A stretch of DNA of 64,000 bases, from positions 5,905,097-5,969,096 of the forward strand of contig CM082598.2 in the NCBI GenBank assembly GCA_040954595.2, given 5' to 3'. Position numbers and translations under genes: made by a program. Source of the stretch: Balanoglossus misakiensis. Taxonomy: Eukaryota > Animalia > Hemichordata. This document shows positions 9,138 through 64,000 of the stretch, piece by piece (the stretch's first letter is position 1; every line of letters begins with the position of its first letter). Under the pieces are notes generated by a model that was not told where the DNA came from, ran no database searches, and worked only from the letters and a program-made list of their open reading frames with translations.

Positions 9138-9249
9138 TTGTTGTTAAAATTATAAGTCTCAAGGACAAATATTGATTGCATAATATACAACCTTACCTTT
9201 ACATGTACCTTGCTTGTAAATATATTGATAAAGATAATTCATTGCAGGT

Positions 9250-10450
9250 TAAAACATATGAAATGAAATTAAAACAATTAAAGCGGGCAATGAAGATTTT
9301 TTGTTGTTGTAATTTTCAGAGAAAACACTTTGAAGAAGAAATCAGTGGTGTGTGGTGTCACATGACAGCCAACTTAAAGCTGTGACCAGTGAACAAGTAA
9401 ATCTCGGTAGAACCCAGCAATATAAGCGGCGCAGGCTGACTCTTCAGTGTGCTGAACAAATTCATTCCTCCGTACCGGTGTGTTCTGTTCAAGGTCAAAG
9501 GCCATTCAAAGCTTCTAGGGCTGCTTTCGATGGTCTTTGGCATACACTTATTACAACGGCTTCACCAAGTCAACTACAACCCTTTTTGTCTAATTCACCC
9601 AAATTGATTAATAGTGTTCTTCCTACTGTTCTCAAACCATCAAGCAAAGATCTAGAGAATGATGAAAGTAATATGATTAGAAGTTTAAAATGTCTATATG
9701 TGAATGGTGTTATGTCGAAACAGAAATATGCTGCACTAGTAAAGGAAAGGAGAGTTCGATTTCATAAAGCAGAGAGAAAAAGCTGACAGGAACAAAACAC
9801 CTGCTTCTCAGCTCAATGCCCAAACTGACTCTATACAAGAAAGTAACATCCTTTATTCAAAGCCTAGATATAGTTGTAGTTGAAGGCAAAGTTGTCGGTC
9901 GTAAGCGCCCCCTGAGTCCCATGCTTCTAAAATTGAAAATGGGGGAAAATAAGCGATGTGATCTGTGTTGGCTTGGGAAACCCAATTGTTTTCAAATTGC
10001 TTTGGGGTCAGATGAAGCTCCCTTTGGAAAGCATAATCAGGCCACAAGCTGGTTAATAAACTTTCTCAATGTTACACGCAAGCTTGCTAGTCCAGATCAT
10101 ATTTTTTTTACTACTTGGGGCGAACCTTAAGAGTACATGAGAAATTATGCTAAGAGTATTACCTCTGAATTACAAGCCATTGTTACAGAGAAACATGACA
10201 TATTCCAGCATGAGGTGTCATTCAAAGTTTCTCTTCTACCATTTAACATGAAAGGATTGGCCTTTGTTTCAGGGGAGCTTAGCAATGCCGCAAAGTATTT
10301 CTCATCTTTTGCCAATGTTTCAACAGCAAACATGAATACACTGAATGCCTAAGTGGTCCAAATAATAAATGGCAAAACTGGGATTATAGCAAACGAGTGA
10401 TTGATGTAGCAATTATCAACAAAATGAAGAATACTCAAATACAATATTTA
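9250..10450 (+). pseudogene. Decayed putative DDE transposase of uncertain superfamily
   Basis: Consecutive broken ORFs 9352-9786, 9816-10130 and 10137-10352 contain IALGSDEAPFGK..SWLINFLN and LLPFNMKGLAFVSGELSNAAKYFSSFANV, a spacing reminiscent of RNase H-fold D...D cores. A TIR-like end ATGGTCCGCCCC|TTA lies at 10975. Confidence 0.4.
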
Positions 10451-11225
10451 ATGGTGTGATCAAAGTACCATGATTACTTCCAAAAGAGAGGGCAACAGAA
10501 AAGAATTATCACTGACACAGGATATATTCTACCCTTTATAGTTATGCATGAAACAATAAGTGTACTGGACAAAGAAGGTATAAGTCTTTCATTGTTAATA
10601 AAAATTATTCCCCCAATTAATATTTGTAAACTCTCTCTGAATAAAGTGAATATTCCAAAAGCAGAAATGAGAATCAGAAGCTAAAGCAAATATTCTGATC
10701 ATTCTGACAAATGCATAAAGCTGTATAAACATGATGCTAGGTCTACATAAGTTCGTCCTTTTATTCGCCTTTATTAGAGTGCATAAAGGTCATTTGTGGT
10801 CAGCCATTATACCAATTTACAGAGTTACAGATAGATGTATAAAAGAGTATCTTTATGCTGCATAAAGATGATTACAAGAACAGCTTTAATCATATTTATA
10901 CCAACTTTAAGCATTGCATAAACCATTGAATAAACCTTCCAGCCCCCCTCTCCAGGATATCAAATGGTCCGCCCCTTATGTGCGCCCTCACTGATGGCAA
11001 TACAAGTCTTGATTCTGACTGGTTGATGCTCATCATCACATGACTATATTGGACTTTGAAAGAATAGAAAAGCTTTGGGATGGTCTGACACTAGTGACAG
11101 AAGTGTTGCTGCTTGATGTATGTGAAGACTGTTCCGTCCTCGGCCTGTCTCTTCGTTGCTCCAAGTTGTGCATGCAAGTCCTGCCACCCACAGCTTCCTT
11201 ATGGTGAGTCTATATTTTATTACAG

Positions 11226-11398
11226 CCTTGTGTGAACACAACATGAGAAACAGAAAGCCCTCTTGTGAAGGCATTTGATACACAACACTTCAATCACATC
11301 GTCTGCTCGCACAGGTTGTCAGCTTGACTACATTGTACGTAACAGTCTCAGAGAGCAAAGGACATTGGTGGGCGTGGGTGAAGATACTGTTTGGATTG
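11226..11398 (+). pseudogene. Possible decayed F5/8 type C (discoidin) N-terminal exon
   Basis: After the acceptor TTATTACAG it reads IHNTSITSSA ... GHWWA (other frame) ... EDTVWI, resembling IPD..ITASS / GAW.A / QWI. It is truncated by the repeat array. Confidence 0.3.
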
Positions 11399-12164
11399 CA
11401 CATTTCATTGACCCCTGGAAATGGTTGTATTTTTGGGTTAAAAAACATTTTTTGATAGTATGTCATTCAATTGAAATTAGGTAAAAAAGTTGACCATGCA
11501 TCATGCATCTTAATATGTCATTCGAAACTAGAGTACACGTGCAAAAAACAACATGTTGTGTTGCGTTATCTACTTCCATTGAGGAGTAACAGCGTTTGAA
11601 AGTTAGAATTTTAGAAAATTTGATCAAATTCACGGTGAGTTGTATTGAATCAGAGTTTATTCCCGCCAGGGACACTTTATCGACTAAAATTGTTTCGTAT
11701 TGTTAGATGGGTCATGCACAATCCCCAGTTAAAATTTGAGCAAATTCGGCCAACGCAGAGCGAAGCTATTTTCGTCTGAAGTTGTCAAGAGCAGCGAAAA
11801 TGCAAACTGAGAAAAACGGCAGTTTGCATTGTTGACACCTATTTCTTAAGCAGTGAACTCATTCAGTGATATTTAGGGGTGATTATGCACCATTTCCGCC
11901 AAGACGCATTTGTCAGAATGTGGATCAGTATTAGACCTACCGAGTTATGTAAAAAAGTTAAATTTGGCAGAAATCACAACTTTTCATGCAATACCACCTT
12001 AACACGATTTTTCAAAGAATGTTTGGAAACGAGCTTATAGCATCTTTGCCATTGTCAAGGTTTTGCCATCTCTAAAGATCATGAAAAAACTAATTTTGAA
12101 TGGAGTACCCTCGGAAACCTCTTAAAATTTTGTGTGTTTATCTGTGCGATACCATGAGGCGATC

Positions 12165-12303
12165 GATGATATGGTCAGGGCGTTATGGCCAAAGGGGACT
12201 GTTCCTGTCCTGATGATATGGTCAGGGCATTATGGCCAAAGGGGACCGTACCTGTCCTGATGATATGGTCAGGGCATTATGGCCAAAGGGGACCATACCT
12301 GTA
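12165..12303. repeat. 47-bp tandem triplication
   Basis: GATGATATGGTCAGGGC... starts at 12165, 12212 and 12259. It is single-copy in the other array units. Confidence 0.9.
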
Positions 12304-12599
12304 CTTTATGATAAGAGCTACATCACAAACAGCTCGAGAAAATTGTTAATCGTTATCTAAATTTGACTGCATGGGCGAATTAAATTTCCAATCCCAACAT
12401 GAAAATTTAGAATCTATAACAGTGTGACCTAAATTGGATATTGGTAATTAAATACGACTTAAAGTTTATTGCTTTATAGTTCATCCCCGCGATTTCTCTG
12501 CGAGCAGTCAAATACACACAGCACTGAACCTCAAAGGTTTGGATGATACCAAGAGGCGGTGGTACGATCAGAGTTTTTTAGGTTCCATTTGTATACATA

Positions 12600-14095
12600 T
12601 ATACCAGTGGGTCTGTCTGTCTGTCTGTCTGTATGTACGTACGTACGTATATCCGTCCGTCAGTATGTCCGTATGTCCGTCCGTCCGTCTACATCGAAAA
12701 CTTGAAAACCGCTGCACGTGTAATTTGATAAAATTTGATATTTGGTGTGTAGATGAATGCTGGGCTGTAGATGGGAGTTTGTTCAAACGAAGTTGTCATT
12801 GCGAAAATATGCAATTTAGCTGGGAAAAACCTAAATTTGGTCAAAACTCAGAAACTCAACAATCCCTGGTCAAATAAATTTGGTATGCATGTACCTTATA
12901 TGAACCTCACACGGTTCTGTATGTTTTGAGCTAATAGTGTGAATTTTCTATTTTTTATGCATTTTTTTGTCTTTTTCCACATTTTTAGTAAAAAAATCTA
13001 CTTTTTTGAAAGTGATCAACCGACGCCTTTGAAATTTAGTATGGAGCTTTATATGGGTGATCTACGGCGCTCAAATAGGGCCAAATTGAAATCGCCATTT
13101 CACTCAACTCAAATCGCATTTCACTCGACTCAAATCGCAATTTCACTCGATGCATGTGTACGGTGTGGGTATCCCTAAGTTACTTCTCAGTTGTCACGCG
13201 CTTCGATCTGATAAGCGTGTCCATGTCAGAACGCAACATGCCTTCGTCACAACGCGTCATCAAAATTTTAACCATGTCCTTTTTGGTTGTCTTAGAGGGT
13301 CGCAATCGGCGTCGAATTGTTCGTTTGTCTACGTTTTACATGGTGGCTACCTTGGGCGAGGAGACTAAGAACCGTAACTGCTCTTCCGGTACGTCTAAGG
13401 AAGGCCTGCCTCTTGTACCATGGTTCAAAAAAGGCGCTTGGTATGATTCATCGACATGTAAACACACCGTGCTCAGGTTGCTCGAGTGCATGTTGAACCT
13501 CCACCACAACCTGAACAACACGCTCATCGCACATTCCAACGTATAAACTGTGATAAACGTTCGGCAAGACTCATACACCTAGACGCCAAATCTTGTCTAA
13601 AATTTTTGAACGTTCAAATCTGGAAATATCATGGACAAACTTTCCGACACGTAGTTATGCACAAACTCCGTACCTGAAGTCATATTCGTAGATTGGAACC
13701 ATTTCGTACGCAACCCCCTAAGAACCTGATCAGTGACCACTGGAATTCTGACAAGTCATTTCATGAATACGCACGTTCATTTTCAACTGCTCTCATTTTC
13801 AACACATATTTCATGGTAGTATGCTAGGGGACCTGGTTTGAGTTGACTGAAATTGCGATTTGAGTCAAATTGCCATTTGAGTCGAGTGAAACTGCAATTT
13901 GAGTCGAGTGAAATTGCAATTTGAGTCGAGTGAAATTGCGATTTGAATGTTGGCCCCTTTTGAGCGCCATAGTAATCTGAGTACCAAAGTTTTGTTTAAA
14001 TTGCTGCAAAATTTCCATATTTATAATTTTGGAGCAATTTTTGCCTTTTTGATCATTGTTATTCCTGTAAAACCGCTTGTAAGATTGCTTAGAAA
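12600..14095 (+). mobile_element. Helentron/HINE-like non-autonomous fragment split by an IS3EU insertion
   Basis: (GTCT)n/(GTCC)n microsatellite head followed by AAATTTGGTATGCA-type core repeats. The sequence continues after 13977. Confidence 0.5.
13063..13971 (-). mobile_element. IS3EU-type internally deleted DNA transposon
   Basis: Ends TACGGCGCTC...GAGCGCCATA, with a 6-bp TSD GTGATC/GTAATC (GTGATC in the duplicate at 28135-28140). Subterminal ~22-bp repeats ATTTCACTCGACTCAAATCGC. The remnant GRPSLDVPEEQLRFL...VATM*NVDKRTIRRRL is HTH-like. Confidence 0.8.
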
Positions 14096-36344: not shown

Positions 36345-37340
36345 AATAATAATAATATTTATTTCTTACATAGCGCATTACATAATGGAATAAAATCTCA
36401 ATGCGCTTTACAACATGATAAAAAGTACACTAAAAATACAAGCTAAAAAATAATTCGACATAAAAACGTTAAAAGGGTATATTAAAGTTGTAAAATGTGT
36501 AAAAGAATTAGTGCATAAATGCTTTCATAAAAAGATGGGTTTTAAGTTGTGTGTTAAAAGAAGACAGGGAAGGTGCATTTCGAATTGAATCGTCAAGGGA
36601 ATTCCATAGCCTGGGAGCAGTTACCGAAAAAGCTCTTTTACCATAATGCTCCTGGTTAAAACGAGGTTCGACAAGTTTTGTGGCATTCGCAGAACGCGTC
36701 AAGCTACTTGGCTTGCAAACAACAAGAAGATATGACAGATAGGTTGGCGCTTGGCCACAAAGACATTTGTATGTAAGAATAAGAACTTTGAAATCTATTC
36801 GATGGATGACAGGGAGCCAGTGTAACTCTTGAACGACCGGCTTGATGTGTTCGGTTTTGTTAGTGCGAGTCACTAAACGAGCAGCTGAGTTATGTATGCG
36901 TTGTAACCGGTTAATGAGATACTCACTGACAGGAAGATGAATGTACAAGCTATTACAGTAGTCAAGACGTGATGTTATGAAGACGTGAATTAATGTTTCA
37001 GTAGTTTTTTCTATCTAAAACGTTACGGATACGACCTATGCGATTTAAAACAAACGAGGCTGACTTACATACTTGCATAATTTGAGTATGAGCTATAACC
37101 ACACTGTCAAAATAAGAGCCAAGGTCTCTGACTACGGCTGAAGGGGTAATTAGGTTTGTACCGACACGTAGTCCGGGTAGCGGTCTAAAGGGTCTGAATT
37201 TCGAATGACAATGAATTAATTCTGTCTTAGTGTCATTTAAAACAAGCTTGTTCACGGCCATCCATTTGCGAATCTCGTCCACGCAAGATTCAATGTGCAA
37301 CTTTGAATGATCAGCTCGCTTGCAGGTTAAGTAAACTTGT
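36345..37340 (-). mobile_element. 5'-truncated L2/CR1-group LINE
   Basis: RT C-terminus QVYL...WMAVNKLVLNDTKTE...VRDLG..FD, SRLDYCNS, LQRIHNSAARLV, LHWLPV..RIDFK, RAFSVTAPRLWNSL. It has a 3' stem-loop (AGCGCATT...AATGCGCT) and a (TAT)n tail, and is inserted in the discoidin-like exon. Confidence 0.92.
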
Positions 37341-38571
37341 ATCGCACGTATCTCCTTCTTGTATCGCACGTATCTCTTCTTGTACGTGGAAGCGATTAGT
37401 TCTACTTTGGGCATAACACCCTGACTGTTTTGTCGATGTCGTCGCTCGATACTGCACAGAAAAAAACTAATCAACATGAATCGTTAAAGTTTAAGCTTGG
37501 ACCTACTATCCCTATGTATAGCTGAGTGCCAATTACTGTTAGCAACAATGTTATTTTGCGATGATGTTTTATTTAAGCGAGATGTCACTCAAAGGAGTGG
37601 GTGTGGCCATGGTTTTGTGATGTTATACGCACATTAATCAAAGATATCGCTTTGGTCTAAAAATACAATTTGTTCAGATACGTTCTTGTCTCACTTAAAA
37701 GTCTCTGCCACTGGCCCAATTAAACCTGATACTGTTTGCTTAGAGTTGTGATCGTGCCTGGGGAGTGACGACTGTTTGAGTTGCATATTTTATTAACCCT
37801 CGGAAATCGTGGCGTTTTTGGGCTAAAAAACAGTTTTTGATATTATGTCATTCAATTTGAATTAGGTAAAACAAGTTGACCATGTATCATGCATCGTAAT
37901 ATGTCATTCGAAACTAGAGTACACGTGCAAAAAAGCGAAAATTTTGATTTACATTTTCTGTTTCCATTGAGGAGTAACAGCGTTTGAAAGTTAGATTTTT
38001 AGAATATATGATCAATTCATGATGAGTTGTATTGAATGAAAGTTATTTATTCCCGCTAGGGACACTTAATCGACTAAAAACATTTTTTGTATTGTTGGAT
38101 GGGTCATATACAATCCCCTGTTAAAATTTGAGCAAATTCGGCCAACGCAGAGCGAAGCTAAATTCTTATGAAGTTGTCAAAAGCAGCGAAAATGCAAAGA
38201 GACCAGCCGTTTTATTTAGTGTATGTACAGTACATGTCATTGGCAGCTTATGGGTCAGTCAGTGTTTGCCCAGTGATCTATGTCTGTCTGTCTGTCTGTA
38301 TGTATACGGCCATGTACTCCGGTGTAGACTTATTCTTGTGTAATCCCTCAATGGGACCAGTGTCCTTGACGCGATTTTTTTCTTTGTAGCGCAGCTCGTA
38401 TTTACTGATAGTTACTTATTGCCTTTTTTTACAGATACAGTCTTCAAAATCATTTGATAGCTAGACATCGCAATCCCTACAAAACTAACTTGCCAGTTGA
38501 ACTCAAGACTGCAACATCGTGCTATGGTGTAATTTGTGAATGTATTCAGAAGCAATGTTAATGACATAACA

Positions 38572-47846: not shown

Positions 47847-49058
47847 GTAAATACCAACCTGACTTCTGCAGGTTAATTCTAAAAGTATGAGCTTTCTCAA
47901 TAGTCCCAATTTCCACTGTAGTTTTCTTGGCAAATTGTGTCTGGGATACAATGTATGTATTTGCCATTGTCCTTTGAATCAAAACTACTCCCTCTATCAG
48001 CCAGGTGTTGTACAGGCAGGTGTTGACTGATGACGGTCGATGCCAATCCTATCACAGAGAGTATCAGATAGGGCGATTGTCTGTCGGCCTCCAGCATCTG
48101 GCAACTCCTGTCTGTCACCTAATACAATTCATCATAAGGAGGCGCCATATAATTTGTCACTGTCCTTTGAATCGAAACTACTCCCTCTATCGAGTCAGGT
48201 ATTGTACAGACACAGGCAAATATTGACTCATGATGATGATGTGATTGTCTCTCCTATCTCTGAAACATTTTATCTCCATTGTCAGCAATTTGGAGTTATG
48301 AGAAAGGGGGATTATCAGCATCTGCCAACAACTGTCTTGTCGAACATAAGGATGTTGTTGTTTTTTGCATTGTTTATCCTCAATCTTTTGTGTTTTAAAT
48401 AATGACATCATTTTTGGACACTGTGGCGCATTGATTTCTGTCTGTCCGTCTGTAGACAGATTTTGTTCCACTCATAACGTGAGAGAAATTGCATCCAATG
48501 ATATGAAATTTGATATGTAGCATTGTTATAATAAGATCTAGATCTGATTAGATTTTGGTGGGTGTGGCATATTAATGCTCATTTGCATATTTAATGATGT
48601 CTTGTGATTAGGCCATACCTCCAGAAATACTCAATCAAATTTAGTGGAACTTTGTTCATAATTTTTACATTACTCATTACCAACAATATGATGAAAGTTG
48701 AGTGGGTTTCACTTAATTAATTCTCATTTCCAAAATTAATGAATTAATGAAATTAGGCTATAGCTCAAAACTGTCTCAAGCAAATTTGGCGCTGTGCTAG
48801 AGGGACTTCATAATAATAAAGCAATCTTTAATTCATGAATATTTCTGTGAACACCATCATGAACACTGATATTTGTGTGATCGGTGCCATGTTTAACTAA
48901 TACATTTTGTTACATAGTCCCATCTAGCTGTGAGAATTATCTCAACTTTGAATCTGATACTCTCTCAGTCAGTCATGACAGCTTTTCCCCACACAGATTT
49001 AGATGTGGTGGGTATGGCCGATTTGCCTCATATTGGCCATACACACCAAGTCTATTAA

Positions 49059-49400
49059 AGGGAAAAAGTCTCTCTCTCTCTCGCTGCCCTTTTTCCATTA
49101 ATTATGTTTTATACAAGACACCATTCATGTTATTCTACATGTGGATATTAACGTTCAACCCCACACAATTTCCATCCCGTTTGTAAGATATGAGAGTAAA
49201 AAACTCGCAAAAATGAATAAATGGTAAACACTGATTATTCATTTTGGAGAGTTTTTCACTCTCCCGTCTGCAAGTGGGATGGAAGTTGTATGTGGTCAAA
49301 TGTTCATTCACTATATATCCACATGTAGAATAACATAAACGGTGTCTTGTATCAAACATATTTAATGGAAAAAGGGCAGTGAGAGAGAGACTTTTTCCCT
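49059..49400. mobile_element. Third copy of the AGGG-ended TTAA MITE
   Basis: TTAA|AGGGAAAAAGTCTCTCTC...GAGAGAGACTTTTTCCCT|TTAA. A 46-bp fragment also occurs at 54260-54305. Confidence 0.9.
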
Positions 49401-50571
49401 TTAATATGCATGAGTTTACTTTTTTTGTTTACATACACTGTAATAATGATTGGAAATCTTGAGAATGGCTATTACATCAAGTTGACAATCCCCGCACAAG
49501 TATGTCATGTATATTAACATAAAAAGTCTGGTATGTGGAGCCGCCTCCCTTTTTTACAGGAAGTACTTTCGAAATATTTGTATGCAATCAGTCCACACTC
49601 ATGATCAGTTTTGTGTCAGAATTATAGTCATAGCAACATTTCGAGAAAGACTTTACCAGAAGAACTTGTTTTCGTTGTGGCTCTGATTGGGGCCATTTTA
49701 AACTGGGGTTTGTTTGGCGACTTTCAGGACCGAAGGACGGAAGCGCAGCCATGGTCACATTACACATGCCATGCGGGGGACTTGGGGAGGGGGTGCTTGT
49801 TGACGGTGCCGAGAGGAGTCAGCCAGTTTGTGCTTGTACTTCAGACCGAATAGTGCAGTTCCGACCCAATTTACGTCTTATAAATTTTATAAAAATATAA
49901 TACATTGTATCATTAAGTTGTTCAGTCGCACAATTTTTTCATCATTCTGAGTAACACGGCGGCAGCGTTTGGATAGCTCTTTCTCTTGGAAATCGCTCAA
50001 GCTTAAAAAACATGAGGTTTGTGCAGCTCCACTCCTCAGCTTCTCATCACTGTCCGTCACTTACCCAATCATTTCAAAGGGGTGATCAAGATGGCCAGAA
50101 CAGCCAATTTTTGCAAACCAGATTCAAGAACCTGAGAAAAGGTGCTCAAAGCATGCCATAGATATATTGACGAGATAAACATTGGGAACAATAGGATTAA
50201 GGGAGGTGTGACTGGTCCAACCTGTTCAGTTTTTGTGTGGGGCACGGCTGGAATGGTTACACAAATGTTCTTGAAAGTTAGTGCTACTGTGGCTTTCAAT
50301 AGTATCTCTTATGACGAGTTTTGTTACTTTTGTTTTTTCTTGATAGGTCATGAAAAGAATGACTGCATTCAGCATTTCATTGCATTTAATTTCATTTGCC
50401 ACACATTCCCATTGGCCACATAGTTTCCACTCAATTCTTGCTTTGGTTATTAGACTTTCTTCAGATGGATTTATTTGTGAAATTCAAGTTTTTTATTTAA
50501 ACACTAATTATAAAGATAACTAGTGACATCACTGCACAACTCTACTTAATATTGTTGGATTTATCGCTTGT

Positions 50572-50992
50572 CACAGCTTGGCTACTTTGTGCTGAGAACA
50601 GTCTGATGCCCTCCTACAGGACATAAACATAGTTTGGTTATCACAGATGTTTGATCTGTTTCTACATAAATCTTCACATCTCCCAAATTTCTCTTTTATT
50701 TCCACTTTGATCGACATCGTCCAGTCTGCACAGCTTGGCTACTTTGTGCTGAGAACAGTCTGATGCCCTCCTACAGGAAATAAACATAGTTTGGTTAGCA
50801 CAGATGTTTGATCTGTTTCTACATAAATCTTCACATCTCCCAAATTTCTCTTTTATTTCCCCTTTGATCGACATCGTCCAGTCTGCACAGCTTGGCTACT
50901 TTGTGCTGAGAACAGTCTGATGCCCTCCAACAGGAAATAAACATAGTTTGGTTAGCACAGATGTTTGATCTGTTTCTACATAAATCTTCACA
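50572..50992. repeat. 157-bp tandem repeat x ~2.7
   Basis: CACAGCTTGGCTACTTTG starts at 50572, 50729 and 50886. Confidence 0.95.
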
Positions 50993-52083
50993 TTTCTTAA
51001 ATTTGTCGTCATATTGGAGATGACATGTGATTATTCCAAATTGGCCAATGTTTCTTCTGACAATTCTACTAAATGTCACTGTAGTTGTTGGCTAGATCTT
51101 CTTCTATATTGTGTAGGTTGCATAAATAAATTGGTCACATTCAGTAAATGTTCACTAACATTACATCACTGTCAGTTGTGATGTAATCATTCTTTGAAAG
51201 AAAATCATAAAAAAGTTAAGTTTAAAATTGGTTATGCGTAATGTTATTTGTTTTGCAAATTGTCAAATTTGATGTTGTTTGTCAATTACTGGGAGTAACT
51301 TTTCTTTCTGTATCAACTGGCAGATATTTTCACAGAATTTATTTAGCTCGATCGTTTAGGTACATGTATAAAACTGAATTACACATGTTTACAGTCGATA
51401 CAGTTTCTGTTCAAATGCTGTTATGAACCGCTTCTCACGGTATATGTGTTTATACGTGTCAGTCGCTCTTACTTCATAAATTAGAGGACACTCCGAATTG
51501 AATCATGAACACGAACAGGTATTTATTGCTTGCACACAAGGAGAACTACAACTACCAGAGAGAGTATCAGAACGAGGCTATATGTCCCATACTGCCATGC
51601 GTCTGGAATGTACCAAAGTCAATACAGGGGGATCAGAATACATCTGATACACTACATCCCTCCTTTTCTTGGAATAGCTCTTCAGGCTACTAATGTATCA
51701 ATGGAATGTCAAGTGTCCACGAAAATGCACAGTTTAAAGTTAACAAAAAATCAACAGCAAAATGTGAAACGAATGCATGTCCAACAATGCATAAACATGA
51801 AAACGTCCACAGTATGTATTTTCCTTATATTAGTGTTCCGCGCATATCTGAAAACAACAATAAACTACTGACAAATTTCAATGTCAATATTCAGGGTCAA
51901 AGCTAATAGCTAACAAGAAAATCTGAGTATTTTGATGGCAGTTGCCTGGACCTTTGAGGTCTGCCACTACTAGTCATAGGTGAATCTGTCAGAGTCTGTG
52001 GACTTTCCCGCCGATGATTTTCTGCAAAGACTGGTCACAGGGTGATATAGCAGGTCAGGTATGTAAGAGTACTTCAAAGTGCA

Positions 52084-52249
52084 TACTCCGAGTTCAAAGA
52101 CCGAGTCGGACTTCAAAGTCCGAGTACTCGGACTTGTACACTCCGAGTAGTGGCTGTACTCGGACTTGTACACTCCGAGTAGTGGCTGTACTCGGACTTG
52201 TATACACCGAGTTGCACTCGGTGCTCGGACTTGCGTACTCCGAGTTACA
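52084..52249 (+). repeat. Left TIR with reiterated CCGAGT/ACTCGG motifs
   Basis: Alternating-orientation CCGAG/CTCGG boxes, including a duplicated 32-bp unit CTCCGAGTAGTGGCTGTACTCGGACTTGTACA. Confidence 0.92.
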
Positions 52250-52331
52250 TACTGCCTATTAAAGACAACGGACAACGACAAGCCTGATTTTATTACTCAC
52301 GAAGTCATTTGCCTGCTTACTACCACGATCG

Positions 52332-55300
52332 ATGTCCACGATGTCTTTAGTTGCGCGATGTAACCGCCAGAAGAAGGCTGCTACGGCAGCCAAGTTTTTG
52401 AAGGAATCCCGTGCGAGTGCTTCAAAAAGTACGAAGAAACGAGACCTGCCCGACACAGAATCGTCGGATCAAGGAGTTATTAACTCACCGGCAAAGCGGA
52501 AAAGGTAGGTTTGATTGACAGTTATTTTAATGCCAAATTCTTCGATTTATTTGTTTAGTAATGTTCATGAAGTTCATAAAAAGGGAAGTGACATCGCATT
52601 ACGCATCGGGTCATGTCATAGTTAGTTATCCGCCATGTTGGTTTAGGCACACTCATGGCCACATGACCGTGTGGCCCGGCCCTCGGGTAACGGACCTAGA
52701 CATCCACGGTTACGGACAATATTGGATCTTTAATGAACGTATGTTTCGGGAATACGAACTAAATTTGGTAATCTGATCACAATGTTGAACATCATGCAAC
52801 GATGATAGCGGCTACACGGAGCAAATTAACACGGTAGTCACGCGCTCCCGCCCGCAGACCTGTGGGCTGTACGTACGTGTACGTACGCGTAAAGGTGAGT
52901 GCAGGGTAGCCCTGCGTACAGGTCTGTGTTGTTCCCGGCGTTACACAGACCTAAGTGCGAGATCAGACTCAGTTGCGGTCGTTGTTGATCGATCGGTTAC
53001 GATCATTTAAGCATCGAAATAGATCTTTACACGAATATTCTTTATTCAAGCATTGGTACAGTGGCTTACAGAAACACTGTATGATGGTAATGTAATTAAA
53101 TTTATTCATCACGGTTATTGATCTATTGATTTTTTAGGATGGTTACCAGTGAAGGTACATGTAGGATGGGTGCATCAGATGAGTACAACCGACAGCTACG
53201 AGTCAGCAACCAGTGGTGGAAATTATCTGATGGTGCCACCTATGTTGTGTCCGATTGTGACAAATCTACTGGAGTTCTTCTAAAAGAAAAATACTGTATT
53301 GTTCAGCATAAGCTTTGTTTCACAAATCCCAATAACAACCAGACTGTCAATATTGGAACATGCAACTGCGAAGATGGAAGTGTACATGCTGAGAGATTAG
53401 AGAAAACTGGGAAGACCATACACCATGACTTTATTGATTTTATAGCCACTGAAAAGAGAAATTATTGCATCCATTCACATGCTGTGGACAGTCTGCAGTC
53501 TCCATCTGAAGACACACCTGTCGCAGAGTCGGGTAAGTTGCATATGAAGAACTATCATTTAAACATATCCAGTGTACATGTAAGTCATGTAGATACCAAG
53601 TCAGTCTCAGTACGTAAGCAATTAATTTCTTGTATTGAAATAATACAATAAACCAGGTAACTTAATTTTATCCCAATAATTTTTCCATATTTTTATCTCC
53701 AGAAACTGTTTGTGTCGATATTTTAAGTGAGAACCCCTTTTTGGCAGCTGTCAGTATGGAGTCTGTACATTTGATACGTCTGAAGAATGGTCTTGCCAGG
53801 AAGAAGCTTGCTTGTGCGACATGCAGGTTTGGCACCTCTGATTGCGACTATGTCAATGTTTTCCGGACGTGGTGTGAACAGACAGAGAGGACAGTCCAAG
53901 AAAGTGAAAGACAAGAGCCGCGTACAAGTCAGTTCCGGTATGTTTCATACAAGCCCATCCCGTATCCAATGTCAGAAGACCTGAAGGCTGTGTATACACA
54001 ACAAGAATTAGGACAGTTGCAATTTCCAGGTTATCTTGTTCCAACTATACCACCAAGTGAAAGCATCAACCACACCTGTCAACATGGAAACGGTTGGGAT
54101 ACAGACGACCCCGTAGAGAAGAAGTGGTTTGTGGGTGATGCAGTCATATACAAAGAAGGCTGTACCATATCCAAGGTGTACCTTTGTGGTGAAGCGAAGA
54201 ACATAAAAGGTACTACACTAGCAGTGTTTTCACTGCATACATTGTCACATCTAATTTAAAGGGACAAAGTCTCTCTCTCGCTGCCCTTTTTTCCATTAAT
54301 TATGTCTAGTAATTGTAACTGCATTATTTTTACACATAGCTTGTGAAGCTTGTGAAATGGTGTGCCCAGCAAGAGAAAATCTTTCAATCAATTTCAATTT
54401 CAGAATTTATAATTTCTTGTGTGTCGTTAATCTTTTCATTACAGTCTGCTTTCGACCCACCATTGGTGAGTGTCAGTGCTGTCTGCATTATGATGGACAA
54501 GGAGAGTTACTTTTCAACTTGAACAACCGGGACTTCGTACACTTTGGGTTATTATATACATATCTCCACTTGATGCTGGAATCACGGAATCCTTTAGCAG
54601 CGTTTCACAGGTCAGTCAACTTTGATAGTAGTAGACCAGCAGACAAAGTGAAATCACAGTGAAACATTTTTTGGTAATATAAATAATCCACAGTAACTTT
54701 TTTTCGGTGTTTGGGGAAGATTGTAATGAATCTGTTTTTATCATTTTGCAGAGCTTATTCTGAGAAGCATGCGACACTGACAAGGTCATCCGTTTTTCTA
54801 CCGTTACACAAACTGCGGTTGGCATGGAATGGCTTCGCAAGACTTTTGAATATACAGTCCCAACACCGTACAACAACTAAACTGTACGGGAAAGTTCCCG
54901 CACTAGTTGTAGCAGTGTTGTAGCAGAGATGTTACGGCAACACCTCTATTGTTGGTTAATTGATGTTTTTTGTCTTAGTTTACGGCAACTACAAAGGTTC
55001 CCGTAGTTTGAAACAAAAGAATGTGTGCTCCATTACGGCAATTTGGGGCAGGTGTTACGGCAAGAAGGGCTAATGGGGAGGTGATTATCACCCTGATGTG
55101 AACAATAGTTGTAGCAATGTCTATATGTGATAATGAGCTCCGCCCATGTGGATTTTTGCTTGGTTGCGGGCAATTAATGTCCTGGCCTCACTAAGCAAAT
55201 GCATTCCTTGCAAATCTTGACAGTGGGAAAGTCAGTTGTCAACCTTACCTAATATTTCCCCTGTCTCAGTAGCTTTACATAGCTAGCTGACCGACTGCAA

Positions 55301-58300
55301 AGTTTTGTGTTGTGACTTATGCAGAACGCAAGCGGTTCTAAAAATAAACTTCCATAACACTTGGCCGTAAGTTGGCAGAGTATTGACTAATATGTTGCAA
55401 TTGACGTACATTTTGTGACAACTAGGGCAAGGCCAACAACCTAATCAGGATATGCAAATTAGGTAAAGACGCACTCAAAACAGCAAGGGACGCAATTTGT
55501 GGTTTCATTGCTTCCCCAGAGACTTGGGTAATAAAAAGCAAGCGCGACCACTGATAAAAGACAGCTGAATTCACAGCATCCATTACGGCCTACCGTTCAC
55601 CATACAATACACGTCTTACTGTGTAGTGGGAGGTCAAAATGTTTTTTTTTCATCAACTTGAACTCAGTATTATTCAACAAAAACATCTGCAAAAGATCCA
55701 CTGTAAAAATCTAGCCGGATTCGACTTGCCACTTGCTTCAAATAGAAGTCCAAATATTTCTCTAGGCACATGTGTGTTCACAATATTTCAAATGAAAAAA
55801 GTATAAAGAACACTAGCTTCCATTTAGGTTTACAGTAAAACAATGAATGGGGTGATAGACTGCCGATTGTCTTTACTTTCAAGTTGGAGGACACATCCCT
55901 TGGGAAACATTAACAGAGAACGTAGGTACGGGCACCAGAAATTGACCAGTGGCCTTACTTTAATATTGGTGGTTAAGATATGACAGTGTGGGCCCGCCCT
56001 GCCCCCGCGGCCCATTACCTGGCAAGAACAATGTGCAACTGACAACGCCAAGTCTCAAATTACATTACATTGCATATTATTGAAATATGTATTCTTGTCT
56101 TTATTGTTGTGTTTATTTGTGTGTGAGAGAAAAAGAGCCGGCCTAGTACCGCAAGATGTGTTGTGCGGGTCAGGTTATTTGCTTGGCGCTAGCTTTTCAA
56201 CGCTGTATTTTCTTGCCTACATGAATTTGTATTTCCTGCCTTGAGTGGGTCTTTTCGTCCAAATTTTATAGTTCTCAATGAGCGCGAGCGTACACAACAG
56301 AATGGGGGCAGTGCTGTATATTATTCGTCCGGATATACTGTAAAGACGGCTCATTGAATGTATTTTATCAGACGCGGACTTGCCGGTCAAGAGACGTAGC
56401 CAGACAATGATAGACAGGCAAATTGTATCAAAGTTCTGCCCACGCGCACGTGGCTTGCTTAGACGTAAACAAATTGCGTGACTGTATAATGAGTAAACAC
56501 GATAGGGGAACTTTCCGATCCCAGGAAAATGGCAGCGCAATATCAGCACATTGAATCACTTGCCGATCCAATCAGTTCCATTCTCACACTATCGAACTTC
56601 TCTTTTTATCATGTCTCTTTCCAAAGTTTGTCATTGCACTGGTGAAAACAAACGTTTGTTTTCTGCCTGTTTTTAACATGTTCCCAGACTAATCACATGG
56701 GTAAACGTTGTAATCTCCGCTATCGGGGAATAAACCTGTGTTTACAAGTGGCATCAACTTGCAAATGAAACATTTTGTCATTTAGAAGTTTTCCAGTAAA
56801 AATAGAGGGGGCGGGCGTACTCCATCACAAGCACAGGTCGGCCAGTATTTTAATGTGCAGGTCGGCCCGGTGCGGAACACGGGTTGTTTTGCATATCATG
56901 CATGAATGGATAGAATTTGCGTGCAAAATAAACTTTTGCCAGATACACAACCTGTGCATACTACGTATGCACGTACGTCTGTAAATCCACCTTGGCGGAA
57001 GGATGAATCAAACGTATTAATAAAGTTGGCCCAGCTGATACGAATCGAGTCTTGCTTTGCTCAAATATATTCTGCGATAATTGCTGTGATTAGCGGTTTG
57101 TCATTTCCAGATGCAAGGTAGTAGACAGGTGGCTTACCACCAGGTTAAAAGAAAGGTGCGTGGACAATCAATCACTCCCCTTGTATAAATGTACATAATC
57201 CCATCTTAGCAGTTTGTCCTGGTTGAAATTCGGCGACAACCATGACAATGAGTGTATGTAAAATGCGCTCAAGGTCTGTCTGTAAAAAACAAGGTCAAAT
57301 GGCAAGTCTTTCGCAAAAATAATCCCCATGTCCAGACAAGAATGTTATCGTTTTCAAATAATTTGTTCAGTGAGGTTTCTTTTTGCTGCGACGCTTGAAT
57401 TCTCAATGGCAGTTTGAGGGCTAGACTTTCACCGTTGAGGTCAAAAAATGTTGGAAAATCGACCATGATTCACGTCCGCCTCGGGAAATTAAAGACAAAA
57501 ATCGATAGGATACATATTCATGGTGGCAATATGTGTGCATTGTGGAGTTTTTTGCCATCGAAAAAGTCGAAAATAATACATTGTCAGGAGAGTTGCCCCA
57601 TTCAGCGTCAATTACACAATGAACGCCACCAGTTGGCTACCCCTGTTTATTTACAGGGAAGTCCGGTGTAATGCAATTAACTGACTCTAGATCACGATTT
57701 GAAAAAAAAAACACAATTTATTGTACGCGTTGCTCATGGCAACATTCGCGCTTGCACTCTCAATGATATTCAAGATAGCAGCTCCAGACAACATGACCTC
57801 AGACACGGTCCCTCGGGACCGTGCCTCAGACCTAGATGGACGCGCGGCCGCTATTGAGGTCACCAGGAAGCTTTCCAATGTGGAACAGCTTCAGTCCGTC
57901 CGCGACGCGAAACACCCGACATTGTAATATCCGAGTCAGATTCGGAGAATGAACCAAAACAACTCAACAATTCCGGTAGAGAAAGGGCATGATTTCCATG
58001 ATGCCGATGCATCATTTTGTTCAGAAATCTACACGCAAATTAATTTTATTAAACAGTTAAATGAAACAAAAAATAAAAATAAATGTATCAATGTGTGTGC
58101 GTGGGTCAACAATTTAACTGGCTCAATCAATCTGATTGATAGACCCGGCAGCAAAGTGTATCAACCTTGTTCAACAAACAAATTGCGTGAATATATAATG
58201 AGTAAACATGTAGGTCATTCATCCCAAACCGGCCAACTAATTGCTGCCAGTCACTTCCCGTCATGTTCAAGCGCTGCCCGTCGAAAAACGAGTGTATCCA

Positions 58301-61008
58301 TTGCCGTAATAATAGAATATTGAAATAATACAGACCATTACTACTTATGAAACCCTTCAAAATTATAGTCAAGAAGACTCTCACAACGTGTCTGTTCTAA
58401 AGATCAAACTGCAGCTGATCGTGGTACTACAGGCCAACATTATCTTGTAAACAAGCCGTACTATTTATTATCAGGGGGGGAAAGGGTAAAAAAAAATGAA
58501 AGCCAATGTCTTTTAAGCTAAACCCAATTGTGAAATGCATCAGTGTGTTTGATTTTCCATTGGTCATGCTTTGTCTCTCTCAAATATTAATTGGTCCAGC
58601 TCCTTGAAAGAAAAGAAACCCCAGCAAAGCATGTGCATTCTACAACACTGGGGTAGGGATGTGTTGACCTCTGTTCATGTCCACAGACTGTTCTGTTACC
58701 GAGAGAGTTCAGACTTTGTCGATGAACATAACATCATTCCAAAACTGACTTCATTGGTATTTGATGTCAGCCCTTTGCCATTTTATTTTTAGACAGAGCT
58801 TCTTTTGTAAACTTTGTGATACAATGTTGCAGTGACCTGTTGCAAAAATGTTGCACTCTAGTTCTAGACCTGTCAATCACTCTAGTTGTAGCAAAATAAT
58901 CAACACCTTGAACAAAAGGCATCACTCTGTGGGGGCTAATTGACAGGTGTTGCAGCAGTATTTACTGGTAGAGGTGTTAAGCTTCCCTTGTTAATGGCTT
59001 GCCGTAAAGGAGTTGCCGTAGTTTTTACGGAAATGTAACAAAAGGAAATGGGCCTCAGACAATTGTTGCAGCAAACTCTGCTACAACTAACAATAGTTCC
59101 CGTAGGGGTTCCCGTAGTTCCCGTAGGGTTGACGTACTACTTGCCGTATTCAGAAATATACAAATAGTTGTTATGTTCTGTTGGGACTGTATGCTGGACA
59201 AGTGCATTTTCTTGTGATGTTTGTGGTGACACCCCTGACATTGTGATTTGTGATGGGACGGCAATTGGAATGAACAAGCAACTCCTTCAATGTTTTAAAC
59301 CTAGTGAAGAAAGTGCAGAAAGTTTACCTCCCATTCTGGGTAGTAAACACACAAACCGAGTGTTTGTACCAAGTCCGCCGGCAAGGAAGCTGCTATTACG
59401 ATTTGCTGGACTGCATCCAGGACACAAGCAGCAAAGAAATTTACCAGTTTCTCCACTGTCGCAAAACGAGTACAGGCAGTTGATCTCGCTCCTGAGAAAA
59501 CATGAACATTTGGTGCCACTTGTTGACTTTCTTGATAGAATAAGCCAGAGTGGGGTTAGTGGTGTTTCACCATTGAAGTATCAGTGCTTCCTCCAAGATT
59601 TGGCAAGAAACTCCCCAGCGTCATCTCTACTACAAACCGATGAACATTCTAAAGTACGTCATATCATCAAGGAAATAGTCATCAAGGGTATCAACATCTT
59701 CCAGAGCTGTCACAAAGAGAAACTCACAGTTCTTCAGACAGAAGCACCCATTATTTGTAGTTTCCTCTGCAATGTCAGTGATGATGGCTGTTTACCAACT
59801 GATGTGCGTCGTCTGATCCAGAGTTTGATGTTGCGGTGTAAAGTTCCATACCCATCACAGTCTACTCAGCAGTACCTGCCTCCCTGTCATAGAGAGCTAT
59901 TTGATGGATTAGGTTTCTTTCCAAACATGCCTGAAGTACAAGGGTAAGTTATGATTTTATAATGTGCCCATATTTTGTATGACACAGGTTGTACATCAAT
60001 TGTTATTGCTGCTTGTTGATATAAGTATACTAAATATAATAACAATCAAAAGTAAAAGTTGACTCTTAATAATTATTTACTATCTTATTGCAGGAGTGGT
60101 AACTATTCTATTGACTGCAAAGCAGAAAGCCGTGCATGCCGAGAAGCAGACACTTGCAACAAGTTTTCTCAAGGCCACCCAACATTATCACCTGGGCTGT
60201 TCACTGTGTACTGTCCCCACAAAATCTGTGTTGGTTTTCAAGTAATGGATGTACATGAATCGCCAGCAACGCCATTCAACATAATCATAAAGCGAATGAG
60301 GAAAGCACCACGCATTATTATTTACGACAATGCCTGCAAGCTCCACCAATACTGCCTGAATCGGTGAGTGAAAGAAACCGAAAGTATAGATAGTGGGGAA
60401 TGTATAATATGTATAGATAAAAGTACATGTAAATTCTCAATAACACACTCTAGGTTCTTGAAAAGTTTGATTTCATGTGTTTTTTTCTAATTAAACTAAA
60501 TTATTGTCAAATTTTCTTTTTCCAGTGAGCCTGACTTCTTCAAGACAACAATGTTTTTAGTTGACAGACTTCACTGGGGCAATCACATTGGGTAAGTATA
60601 CTCTACAAACTATTTATACTCGGGCAATTTTTGGAGTCAGGCTTCAGAAACAGTGGTGAAGCCTAATGCTGTGTTGTTTTACATATATCTGCAGCCTTAC
60701 ACAGACCTAGATCGTTCAAATTTGACAACCTACAAAATCATAGATAAAAACATTGTAAACATTTCAGCTGATCTGTACTACACTGTTAAATGTTTTTATT
60801 TTCTTTCAGATGTTCCTCTGGATATAACATGGCTGTCTACAAGGCTGACAGAGCCATCACACAGTTGAATTCACAAGTTTGTGAGCAGAGCAATGCATCT
60901 ATTTCAAGGATTAAAGCACAGCTGTCCTACATGTTACCAGACAACTTTATTTTTCACGCTGCTTTGTTTCTGGGAATAACAAACATGAAAGCAAAGAATT
61001 CATGTTAA
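52332..61008 (+). CDS. KDZ/Zisupton-type (HMGXB3-related) transposase, 8 exons, interrupted by a 4.3-kb insertion in exon 5
   Basis: Exons 52332-52504, 53138-53532, 53703-54209, 54445-54610, 54752-54854+59192-59943, 60094-60363, 60526-60591 and 60810-61008. All introns are GT-AG and phase-compatible, totalling 2631 nt (876 aa). Motifs: SWIM-like CNC..CIH, CDVCGDTPDIVICDG, CNK...PGLF..YCPH..C.GF, ESP, IIYDNACKL..YCLNREP.FF, VDRLHW.NH..C, NSQVCEQ. Confidence 0.88.
54855..59189. mobile_element. 4,335-bp non-autonomous TIR element with TA TSD
   Basis: TA|CAGTCCCAACA...TGTTGGGACTG|TA, with subterminal TACGGCAA/TTGCCGTA, TACGGG/CCCGTA and TTGTAGCAG repeats. No recognisable ORF. Confidence 0.88.
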
Positions 61009-61144
61009 TGTTAAATATAAAAATAATTTATTCATCAATTGAGTCAATATTACAAATGTTACTAATGGGAAAAAAAATACACTTCATTAATAAAAAATAG
61101 CAGAAATTTCTCAAGTAAAAGCAGATTTTATTATTACATTAAAG

Positions 61145-62630
61145 TTACAAATCCATCACTCTTCTTCGCTTGGACGCTCTCTGGCTTCTTCGTGGCTGCT
61201 GGTCATGAGGTTGTGACAGGGTTGGTGAAGGTAGGGTGGAAACGGTGGATAGCTGTGGTGGTTGTTGATCATCATGGCTGAAGATAGTGGGTAGTGGTGG
61301 TGGTGTGGGTGGAAAATCACGCAGCGATGACTGGAAGGGATCGGGTGAATTGAAGGAGGCGATGGACTGGTCCGTGTTGATTGTGGTGTTTCTTGTGTGT
61401 ACCATCACATCTGATAAAGTTAGAACTGGCATCTCCAGTGGTGTTGAGTGCATGTGATCTGAAAGAAAAATAGGAAAATAGATTAAAATCGATGTTAATA
61501 TGTAAAGTGTAGAATGACATAATAGATAATTAATTTTTCTGTGTATATATTTTGTAGACCTTTTGTGACAAGTTTTATATGTATCAATAAATGTGAAATG
61601 ATTTGACAAATACCAGTTTTTGTAAATTATAGACATAGATGAGAACCATAAATATGACTTACCTTCTATACTTCTCATAGATGAGAAAGTGGGCGTTGGA
61701 GCCTCGGACGAGTACTGTGCCAAGTAGTTCATAGCAGCCGGCAAGTCATCTACCCGTACAGACATATCTGAAAGTTGAAAATTTAAATACAGAATACATC
61801 TCTATTTTAGAAATATTGTATTATGCAAGGAGTATTTTTAAATTTCAAATTCCAGTTTGTGATGGGAAACGAAGGGTTAAAATTGGATTGAAGAAAAAAA
61901 GTATCTACTACTTACTCTCTGTCGAATCTTGAGGCGTGGGTTCTTCTTCTCGGAAATCACCTGTATGGGGAGTATAAGTACAAATTGTTAAAATCCAGAA
62001 AGAAACGAGCACTTAATCCAAACTTGCAAACTGTTAAAAGCAAAAGTGACATAGTAAAACGGATATCAACTTACCTGTCAAATGCATCATTTGATAAAAG
62101 GAATAGCATGATGCCGCTGCCCTTCTCAGCATCTTCGTCCACTGGCCACGGGGTCCTTGCTTAAGTTCCGCGGGGGTCTCCGACGGGTCGCAGAATGGCA
62201 CATCACTCGGCCACCACTCCGGAGCGTTGTCCTGCTGGCCCCAGAGGGGGCGTGATCGGTTGACGGTCTTCCGGACGATGTCCGGCACTAGCTTACGTAG
62301 CCCATCGTAAGCCATTACGCTTAGGGTACAACCCCATCGCGCGACACAGTCTGGAAGGCGTTTGGGGTTGTCACTGTCACTGGATGGTGTTGAGGCTGTT
62401 GCTGTGGAAACCGGCGTCGTGTTACTGTTGGCGATGATGGTCGGCATGGATGCAGCGATCGATGTTTGCAGACCTTCGCTGCCGTGGACGATGAACTTTC
62501 GCTCACCGGTCAAGCGATCTACAAAAGTTGTCACTACGGCGACCTCGAGGGACGTCTTCTTCGAAAACATGTCGACCTGGCTCGACAAAATTCTCCAGCT
62601 GCTGGTCTGCTTCTTGTTAAGACTCTCCAT
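61145..62630 (-). CDS. NRF1/EWG-type DNA-binding-domain protein, 4 exons, 339 aa, inside the KDZ element
   Basis: Exons 62630-62075, 61960-61916, 61767-61663 and 61458-61145 (all phase 1, GT-AG, 1020 nt, no stops). LRKLVPDIVRKTVNRSRPLWG..NAPEWWPSDVPF.....WTKMLRRAAASCYSFY resembles the NRF1 DBD pattern (LR.FIP.ML...GRGKPGWG....P.WWP.DIPW....WT.ALR.IV.NCY). The tail is P/S/T/Q-rich with a basic end (RRSQRASKRRR). Confidence 0.8.
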
Positions 62631-62690
62631 TGCGATGCGTGTAGTACTCAGAATTACGATGTAATGACATGAACTAGAAAGTTTCCCATA

Positions 62691-62698
62691 TTTATATA
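62691..62698 (-). promoter_or_regulatory. Candidate TATA box of the NRF1-like gene
   Basis: TATATAAA on the - strand, ~60 bp upstream of the ATG at 62630. Confidence 0.4.
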
Positions 62699-63903
62699 GA
62701 TTGCAACAATGAAAGGTGACAAACATGATCTTGACCGCACTTTCGCGATTGCCGACAATGCCGCATACACATTCACACTTTCATAATCATAGAGGGTGAT
62801 TGACACGATCGGCCCCTTTGACTCTATTAGGAGGTGGTATATCAGATGCACCGACCGTTTATTCCAAGTGCCGCTAACCAATTAATAATAATTATAAACT
62901 TGTGAATGGGAGTGGTCGGTACCTTCGGATCATGCTTAGCGAAAGGCATCGGCAGTAGAGAGACCAAAATGATTGGCAGGAGGTTCATGGAGTTGGTTTA
63001 CCGCCTCAATTTACAACTACATGTACATTTGTATTTAGACCTAAAAAACTCATTCGATAACATCATGTGCGCAGGCAGCGAGGACATTTTTCTTTAATAC
63101 AAAATAGCCGATTGAAAAATAACGTGTTTTTAAATATCGAATTCACTGTTGAGGCAAAAGTCGGACGTACACGGCCAAAGACACAATTTCCGTACCTCAC
63201 CCATATTCTACTCATTTAAACCGATCTCACAGTCACCAAACACAGAAAGAATATCAGACACACCTATTCTCTCCCCCCCCCCTCCCCCCAAAACAACATT
63301 TTTTTTACGTTTTATTGAGACGGACCGAATGACTGTCACCACTCGTTCACTCCCGGGCATTCGCTCAAGAATAACACGTAACTGCACTCACGCTATAGAA
63401 ATACACACAACCGTCTTTCCAAATAAATATATCAATTTTATTTTGACATAAAAACGTTGGGCAAGTATACCGATCACGGTAGCGCGCGAGTAGTCAGATT
63501 CATCGCGCGATCATCCGATGAGCGCAGTGCGACCTTGACCATAGTTCAACCGATGACGTCAAAGGTCAGGTCATTCAAAAATGGCGATTGTCGCATCGTA
63601 TATACCCATTTCGCGTTCGTACGTAAGCTCAATCAGCTGCTAAAATCGACAAACCAAAGAGCCCCTAATTAAAGTCGATGTAAAATCAGACTTGGATATG
63701 ATCTAGTAGAAAGGAAAGGTCAGTATTTCACCAAACGAGAAATGACGCGGATCGTGTATTTTGTACATAGCTGCATACCGGTAACACAACATATCAAGTT
63801 TTCAAAACCCCTCGATCGATACGACTGGGAGCTCGGTATTAAGTATTCCCACATTTTATCATCGAATAGAATTTGTGCTTTTAGAAGCTGGCTTGTATTC
63901 AAG

Positions 63904-64000
63904 TGTAACTCGGAGTACGCAAGTCCGAGCACCGAGTGCAACTCGGTGTATACAAGTCCGAGTACAGCCACTACTCGGAGTGTACAAGTCCGAGTACTCG
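63904..64000 (-). repeat. Right TIR of the KDZ element (truncated by the window edge)
   Basis: 97 visible bases are the reverse complement of the left TIR with one 32-bp unit fewer. Confidence 0.92.

Follow-up and report, generated by a model that had tools for sequence, protein, structure and literature searches.

An NRF1-like gene inside a KDZ-type DNA transposon of the hemichordate Balanoglossus misakiensis

What might a gene resembling the transcription factor NRF1 be doing inside a DNA transposon? The question is raised by a stretch of 64,000 nucleotides from Balanoglossus misakiensis (GenBank assembly GCA_040954595.2, contig CM082598.2, positions 5,905,097 to 5,969,096 of the forward strand; hereafter the window). 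This is repeat-rich eukaryotic DNA in which an element with inverted repeats holds a transposase gene of the KDZ (Kyakuja-Dileera-Zisupton) type and, reading toward it, a gene for a protein related to NRF1/Erect wing (EWG)/P3A2. We consider it probable that the NRF1-like gene is a long-standing part of a two-gene KDZ lineage. More tentatively, and by analogy to another transposon group, we propose that an NRF1-type dimer encoded by the element binds its palindromic end repeats and serves the transposase.

NRF1, a conserved transcription factor of animals, binds inverted half-sites and tolerates spacers of 0-7 bp between them. It reads bases by R206, N242 and R244, its dimerisation domain itself has an SRF/MCM1-like (MADS-like) fold, and its mode of DNA binding was described as new when it was solved (PMC10810270). 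In the KDZ group, target-site duplications are 8 bp in Zisupton/Dileera and 7 bp in Kyakuja, which has no inverted repeats (PMC12730594), and CxC7 is given as a Zisupton domain (PMC12062965). Described KDZ cargo includes TET/JBP in fungi (PMC12730594) and an F-box in Zisupton (PMC12062965).

The original prediction knew of no description of NRF1-type cargo. PMC12730594 and PMC12062965 have 0 instances of the string 'nrf1' in their main text, and in a survey of titles and the openings of abstracts we found no description of an NRF1-type gene paired with a KDZ/Zisupton transposon. The findings below suggest that this cargo and the two-gene design are new for KDZ transposons, a kind of element that is itself known.

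The element and its two genes

At the ends of the element, arms 52156-52249 and 63904-63997 match with 100% complementarity over 94 nt. This bears out the predicted terminal inverted repeats enclosing a transposase gene on the + strand and a convergent gene on the - strand. Each 32-bp unit of the ends contains inverted half-sites 11 bp apart. Contigs came from runs X1, X2 and X3, all of one sample that is possibly the window's own source; depths in these runs are not copy numbers. The repeat flanking the element is represented by X2 record 9, a contig of depth 1290 that equals the window over 51631-52055 and diverges there, which fixes the start of the element at 52056. On the right, base 64000 of the window is the partner of 52121 and the arm is one unit shorter than on the left, which puts the predicted terminus ~65 bases outside the window. 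The predicted span of 52056 to 64000 is thus correct at its left end but stops short at its right.

The locus has the marks of a discrete mobile unit, i.e., inverted repeats, a flanking repeat that breaks at 52055, ends far deeper than the coding part, and variant ends. Summed X1 depth over 63364-64000 is 438-2723, variant ends included. This depth fits many short derivatives sharing the ends of the element, and the diverged copies of the right subterminal region are likely non-autonomous. Rfam gave 0 matches in 50000-64000, and a scan of viral contigs with the end-repeat pattern detected no relative.

The NRF1-like gene could be rebuilt as the intact four-exon gene that had been predicted, with 339 aa, three GT-AG introns, no internal stop and its upstream region present. 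Exons 3-4 are further supported by tail motifs common to acorn-worm RefSeq models. Exon 1 matches Pfam Nrf1_DNA-bind (PF10491) with E 1e-15 and 58.5 bits against a cut-off of 23.5, over profile positions 32-205 of 213, and human NRF1 (8K4L) matches it with E 3.9e-11. The predicted structure of the protein (predicted local distance difference test score, pLDDT, 87.5) retrieved matches with E<=0.001 in Foldseek only for NRF1 chains (3 of 289 matches). Its DNA-binding domain superposes on NRF1 with Z 12.4 (matches about 12-13) and a root-mean-square deviation of 2.9 A over 98 residues, and its N-terminal domain reaches Z 6.6-6.9 to SRF/MCM1. Both NRF1-like segments noticed earlier in exon 1 are therefore recovered, by profile and by predicted fold, and a chance resemblance to NRF1 was rejected on the Pfam, human NRF1 and Foldseek matches. 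A weak match of the gene to the fungal domain PF11001 (E 0.017) was also seen. The contigs of X3, a small set from which silence is not inferred, lack exons 1-2.

In the base-reading positions, R112 corresponds to R206 of NRF1, whereas N242 is replaced by D148 and R244 by S150. Since one of the three residues is kept and two are changed, and since the NRF1 site GCGC-NN-GCGC has 0 matches in the whole 64-kb window, the protein is expected to read a new target sequence. The equivalents of R206, W224, W258 and T259 are kept, and the order of MADS-like dimerisation domain, linker and DNA-binding domain is that of NRF1 (PF10491; 8K4L, 8K3D). In contrast to NRF1, the window protein starts at the dimerisation helix without the N-terminal region of the nuclear localisation signal (NLS). 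It also differs in being only 21-27% identical in structural alignments, in the changes at N242 and R244, and in belonging to a multi-copy family on a long branch and lying inside a transposon.

The transposase model comprises eight exons and 876 aa; its introns are GT-AG and its reading frame is free of stops once a nested insertion is removed. Exact GT..AG skips were present in X3 for five of the seven introns and absent from X1 and X2 (among the joints listed, 15 of 17); X3 is flagged 'DNA?', yet the intron skips make it behave like RNA. The full protein is 55-58% identical to proteins of Glandiceps talaboti and Ptychodera flava, and RefSeq homologs align only from residue 50-59 onward. Exon 6 is 71-72% identical to two homologs bearing the KDZ domain PF18758 (P0001 and P0002). 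D469, D777 and E836, which we take to be the catalytic triad, recur in those aligned homologs that extend over the three positions; the predicted fold of P0002 (pLDDT 42) was too poor for the acidic triad to be assessed.

Profile matches of the transposase are modest. Exon 6 alone matches Pfam KDZ with E 0.018 and exon 4 matches CxC4 with E 4.8e-4 (about 5e-4), both under the cut-offs, but the 55%-identical homolog P0001 passes the PF18758 cut-off of 26.6 bits with 34.3 bits; P0002 (E 1.3e-5) lies just under it. CxC4 also matches P0001 (E 3.7e-5) and P0002 (E 3.5e-3), again under the curated cut-off. Pfam gave no match to SAP, SUMO-protease or CxC7 on seven transposase exon pieces or on full-length homologs P0001-P0003, and none to SWIM in exon 2. 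Strict Zisupton elements carry SAP and SUMO-protease domains. Because no CxC7, SAP or protease match was found, the element does not class as a strict Zisupton, and because it has long inverted repeats it does not class as a Kyakuja; judged by sequence, it is of KDZ type and neither of these. Of the predicted KDZ/Zisupton assignment, the KDZ part therefore stands and the Zisupton part is too narrow. Scans of viral contigs with two transposase alignments, and one with P0032, found no relative.

The present copy of the transposase gene is evidently broken and not autonomous, as a 4,335-bp element interrupts exon 5 at a site where the homologs have unbroken sequence; the 876-aa model exists only with this element taken out. 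The spliced transposase of the original prediction thus holds for its introns but not for the continuity of its coding exon. Splicing out of the nested element was judged not to be a likely rescue: the only in-frame bypasses use acceptors without a pyrimidine tract. No joint across the insertion, such as an uninterrupted copy would give, was among the X3 joints listed (15 of 17). The nested element itself has repeated subterminal words and a short internally deleted relative (joint 54953>59117), and deep contigs together with joint 56440>58176 mark an inner insertion within it. Intron 3 of the transposase gene contains, at 54256-54305, a 50-bp end of a very high-copy hairpin miniature inverted-repeat transposable element, a whole copy of which lies at ~49053-49406.

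A spliced contig of the transposase extends to 61601, 15 bases after an AATAAA, so its message is likely to overlap the last exon of the NRF1-like gene in antisense. The contig runs over this exon and part of intron 3 (61009-61601), and mutual regulation is possible.

A divergent family of NRF1-like proteins

Relatives of the NRF1-like protein were not reached by word-based protein searches with exon 1, at near and longer lengths, nor by a viral-contig scan with the same exon; a full HMMER scan succeeded. Most of its 150 clusters are canonical NRF1. The ten best relatives, with 24-75 bits on the Pfam model, comprise five P. flava genes on contigs of five different lengths, two G. talaboti genes and three others. 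Three Branchiostoma species and a brittle star are represented among ten further divergent clusters that we looked up. Within one species the paralogs are scattered, with identities below about 50%. For the NRF1-like protein and the transposase alike, the closest named homologs are from acorn worms. NRF1-like alignments are too divergent for pattern scans, and metagenome and genome scans used the transposase.

Phylogenetic analysis placed the protein apart from host NRF1. In a 60-row tree it falls in an 8-row group (support 98/92), in a 42-row mixture-model tree 18 divergent rows lie beyond one long branch (SH-aLRT 97), and a 21-row tree sets it apart from canonical NRF1 with support 100/99. 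In this last tree, an arrangement that unites the acorn-worm group with canonical row P0047 was rejected (p-AU 1e-5). These trees used hand-picked subsets of 151 domains, are unrooted, and have long branches that meet, so they show separateness and not direction.

The PF10491 score of the window protein, 58 bits, compares with roughly 260-390 bits for the canonical rows of the trees. With this low score, its place outside the canonical group and two of three base-reading residues changed, it does not qualify as a canonical NRF1/EWG ortholog. A recent copy of host NRF1 was ruled out by the 100/99 split and the p-AU value. The idea of the cargo as a captured single-copy host NRF1 accordingly has to be given up, and the comparison of sequences and trees places the protein in a divergent, multi-copy family apart from host NRF1.

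Several members of the scan are of interest in their own right. P0141 (997 aa) contains three NRF1-type DNA-binding repeats and a BTB domain. P0019, P0098 and P0123 have repeated domains scoring on both PF10491 and fungal PF11001, and sequence similarity suggests that the two families share a fold. The Branchiostoma proteins P0027, P0071 and P0083 come from three species, have ~80% identity to one another and bear the annotation NRF1, yet lie far from canonical NRF1; the amphioxus proteins may represent a domesticated gene beside a transposase remnant.

Pairing of the two genes and possible roles of the NRF1-like protein

The strongest independent evidence for the pairing comes from amphioxus, in a protein that was reached by the NRF1-like search alone. 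In Branchiostoma belcheri KAI8516329.1, residues 1-423 are those of the NRF1-like model KAI8516328.1 and are followed by a transposase half that is 43.6% identical to residues 537-869 of the window transposase (E 2e-89). This model may place an NRF1-like gene and a transposase side by side on one strand in another phylum, although a false fusion is possible. The pairing thus recurs in this model, which does not have the tail-to-tail order. In P. flava, the records of NRF1-like P0014 and of transposase P0002 each give a contig of 4,771,094 bp, apparently one scaffold. With the P. flava genome presumably about 1.2 Gb, the chance of such sharing is ~3% for 5 by 2 genes.

In the proposed mechanism, a cut-and-paste KDZ-type transposon would carry two genes between inverted repeats, and the NRF1-type protein is predicted to dimerise through its MADS-like domain as NRF1 does. 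With its flexible linker the dimer would attach to the inverted half-sites that make up the ends of the element and, once bound, help the transposase to find and pair them, much as Harbinger ORF1 does; the present copy would move only with transposase supplied from elsewhere. This predicted end binding draws on the palindromic repeats and on the Harbinger analogy. In PIF/Harbinger, the Myb-like ORF1 protein binds ends, contacts the transposase and helps its nuclear import (PMC2836001). The working likeness is a separate element-encoded DNA-binding protein beside the transposase. The two systems differ in that their transposases and DNA-binding folds are unrelated and in that cysteine clusters and a basic N-terminus are found in the present transposase itself.

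The remaining likenesses are to KDZ elements at large (a multi-exon DDE-type transposase, KDZ core, putative CxC4-like cluster, CA terminus and an extra gene inside the element) and to Zisupton, which also has inverted repeats. RAG-like (ProtoRAG) and Kolobok transposons have two genes tail-to-tail between inverted repeats and occur in the same animal groups. They differ from the present element, neither gene of which is tied to RAG1, RAG2 or the Kolobok second protein by any of the matches obtained.

Several observations weigh against a lineage of paired genes or against end binding. Half-sites in the 32-bp units are 11 bp apart, more than any spacer tested for NRF1, and transposons with a single gene commonly have repeated motifs at their ends too. 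The transposase has cysteine clusters of its own, and KDZ cysteine clusters have been proposed as DNA or chromatin readers (PMC12062965, citing Iyer 2014). KAI8516329.1 is an automatic gene model, with both parts on the same strand rather than tail-to-tail and without the first catalytic aspartate, and the ~80% identity of the amphioxus NRF1-like proteins between species is as compatible with a host gene as with a mobile one. The accession numbers of P0014 and P0002 are 144 apart, so adjacency is not implied. Just one of 156 NRF1-domain proteins fetched contains transposase sequence. Long branches weaken the deep tree. The predicted co-occurrence across loci was not seen in the five transposase loci that we fetched (NRF1-like gene in 0 of 5); three of these end inside the transposase and two are near-identical copies of a single piece, truncated and frameshifted, which has flanks of 10 kb. 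A further locus holding the two genes between inverted repeats was not seen in these data, which do not extend to genomes or flanking DNA of the relatives.

The truncated piece at ~8500-12750 of locus L004 (99.4% identical in L005 over most of the locus) is 46% identical to the C-terminal part of the window transposase and has a 69-bp imperfect inverted repeat. It lies in an AT-rich island of a GC-rich, gene-dense contig filed as a bacterial metagenome-assembled genome. Among its neighbours are a deoxynucleoside kinase, a protein kinase, a metallophosphoesterase and a BTB protein. L004 looks like a large eukaryotic DNA virus with a KDZ remnant.

The NRF1-like gene could instead be a passenger from a divergent family of host NRF1 paralogs, with the amphioxus neighbourhood due to a faulty gene model or to an insertion there by chance. 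Depth is higher for variant copies of exons 1-2 than for the transposase (57-98 vs 32 in X1; 133-319 vs 84 in X2), and these copies diverge from the window near 61780, so copies without the present transposase exist. In the same direction, the amphioxus proteins look like conserved orthologs, and KDZ elements do pick up cargo such as TET/JBP (PMC12730594). The variant copies may be either host loci or deletion derivatives of the element, however, and the high-copy right subterminal region would suit the latter equally. Also unlike a passenger, the gene is whole, with three introns, an upstream region and no stop, the same transposase type is joined to an NRF1-like gene in another phylum, and the paralogs are both dispersed and dissimilar within one species. 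We regard this explanation as unlikely. A weak point in favour of the proposed mechanism comes from the variant copies of exons 1-2: among 13 differences listed, from a table with 54 further rows, 7 are silent against an expected 23% (p 0.015). The 3' half of the transposase in X1 is one contig of depth 32 with no difference from the window.

If the gene does belong to the element, its product might act on transcription rather than on the transposase. A dimer at the CpG-rich ends, in which the two promoters would lie, could activate the element's genes or block their silencing, in keeping with host NRF1, a promoter-binding activator (PMC10810270). Both genes read inward from ends with a CpG observed/expected ratio of 1.0-1.3 (1.3 over 62631-63900) vs 0.39-0.55 in the inner exons, the transposase starts ~80 bp from the left repeat, and the low-complexity tail of the protein contains short conserved motifs. 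A new specificity would be needed here too, however, as the ends have no GCGC-NN-GCGC, and a dedicated activator gene inside a DNA transposon would be unusual. Such a regulatory role seems to us somewhat unlikely. A still different role, also raised in the original prediction, is targeting: by holding the transposase at particular host sequences or at open promoters, the protein would steer where the element lands. This is within the capacity of a sequence-specific dimer in principle; the single visible insertion site, however, lies in another repeat within a repeat-full region, and we consider this very improbable.

If the lineage of paired genes is real, the NRF1 fold would be linked to mobile DNA through a divergent NRF1-type family that moves with KDZ transposons in acorn worms and in amphioxus, and the little-studied KDZ group would gain a two-gene design. 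Other transcription-factor domains are derived from transposons, and we know of no account of the origin of the NRF1 fold. That NRF1/Erect wing is itself a domesticated descendant of the end-binding protein of a KDZ transposon, the fold being an old KDZ working part, is a speculation to which we give little credence. The direction of transfer could be tested by paired trees and a wider taxon sample. For acorn worms and amphioxus, re-annotation may be needed of gene models that bear the names 'NRF1' or 'Ewg-like'.

Feature map and the rest of the window

Table 1. Features of the element and its insertion site (window coordinates)
Feature	Position	Strand	Remarks
Candidate left target-site copy	52048..52055	.	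End of the high-copy host repeat hosting the insertion; 8 bp if the Zisupton/Dileera rule holds
Left terminal inverted repeat	52056..52249	+	Starts with CA; perfect 16-bp palindrome 52118-52133; four 32-bp units
Transposase exon 1	52332..52504	+	Basic, NLS-like; putative start codon; X3 joints listed do not include intron 1
Transposase exon 2	53138..53532	+	CxC...CxH, SWIM-like motif by eye; X3 joint 53531>53702
Transposase exon 3	53703..54209	+	X3 joint 54207>54443
Transposase exon 4	54445..54610	+	CxC4-like cysteine cluster
Transposase exon 5, part before nested insertion	54752..54854	+	Homologs continuous across the site
Nested 4,335-bp element	54855..59189	.	High-copy, non-coding; ~25-bp inverted ends; TA duplication; further insertion ~56441-58175
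Transposase exon 5, part after insertion	59192..59943	+	CxxC; D469, inferred first catalytic aspartate; X3 joint 59942>60093
Transposase exon 6	60094..60363	+	KDZ core; D777, inferred second catalytic aspartate; X3 joint 60362>60525
Transposase exon 7	60526..60591	+	X3 joint 60590>60809
Transposase exon 8	60810..61008	+	E836, inferred catalytic glutamate; stop
Likely transposase 3' untranslated region	61009..61601	+	Antisense to NRF1-like last exon; spliced X3 contig 23 stops at 61601; AATAAA at 61586
NRF1-like exon 4	61145..61458	-	Low-complexity tail, conserved STP and TINTD motifs, basic RRSQR end; stop
NRF1-like exon 3	61663..61767	-	Alignment to homologs; splicing inferred
NRF1-like exon 2	61916..61960	-	Splicing inferred from GT-AG and frame
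NRF1-like exon 1	62075..62630	-	aa 1-72, MADS-like dimerisation domain; aa 87-185, NRF1 DNA-binding domain; flexible linker between the two
Right subterminal region	63364..63903	.	Common to many diverged copies; CpG-rich; upstream of NRF1-like gene; X1 depth 438-2640 vs 32 in transposase
Right terminal inverted repeat	63904..64000	-	Ends with the window; terminus predicted ~65 bases further on

Outside the element, a helicase C-terminal fragment (PF00271; 3-593, + strand) and a DUF6589 fragment (1988-2722, - strand) probably derive from a different DNA transposon, as remnants of it. A repeat of several kilobases is present in a number of diverged copies, some in tandem, over ~11400-38200, and a reverse-transcriptase-like remnant, named by its appearance only, lies at ~36500-37500.

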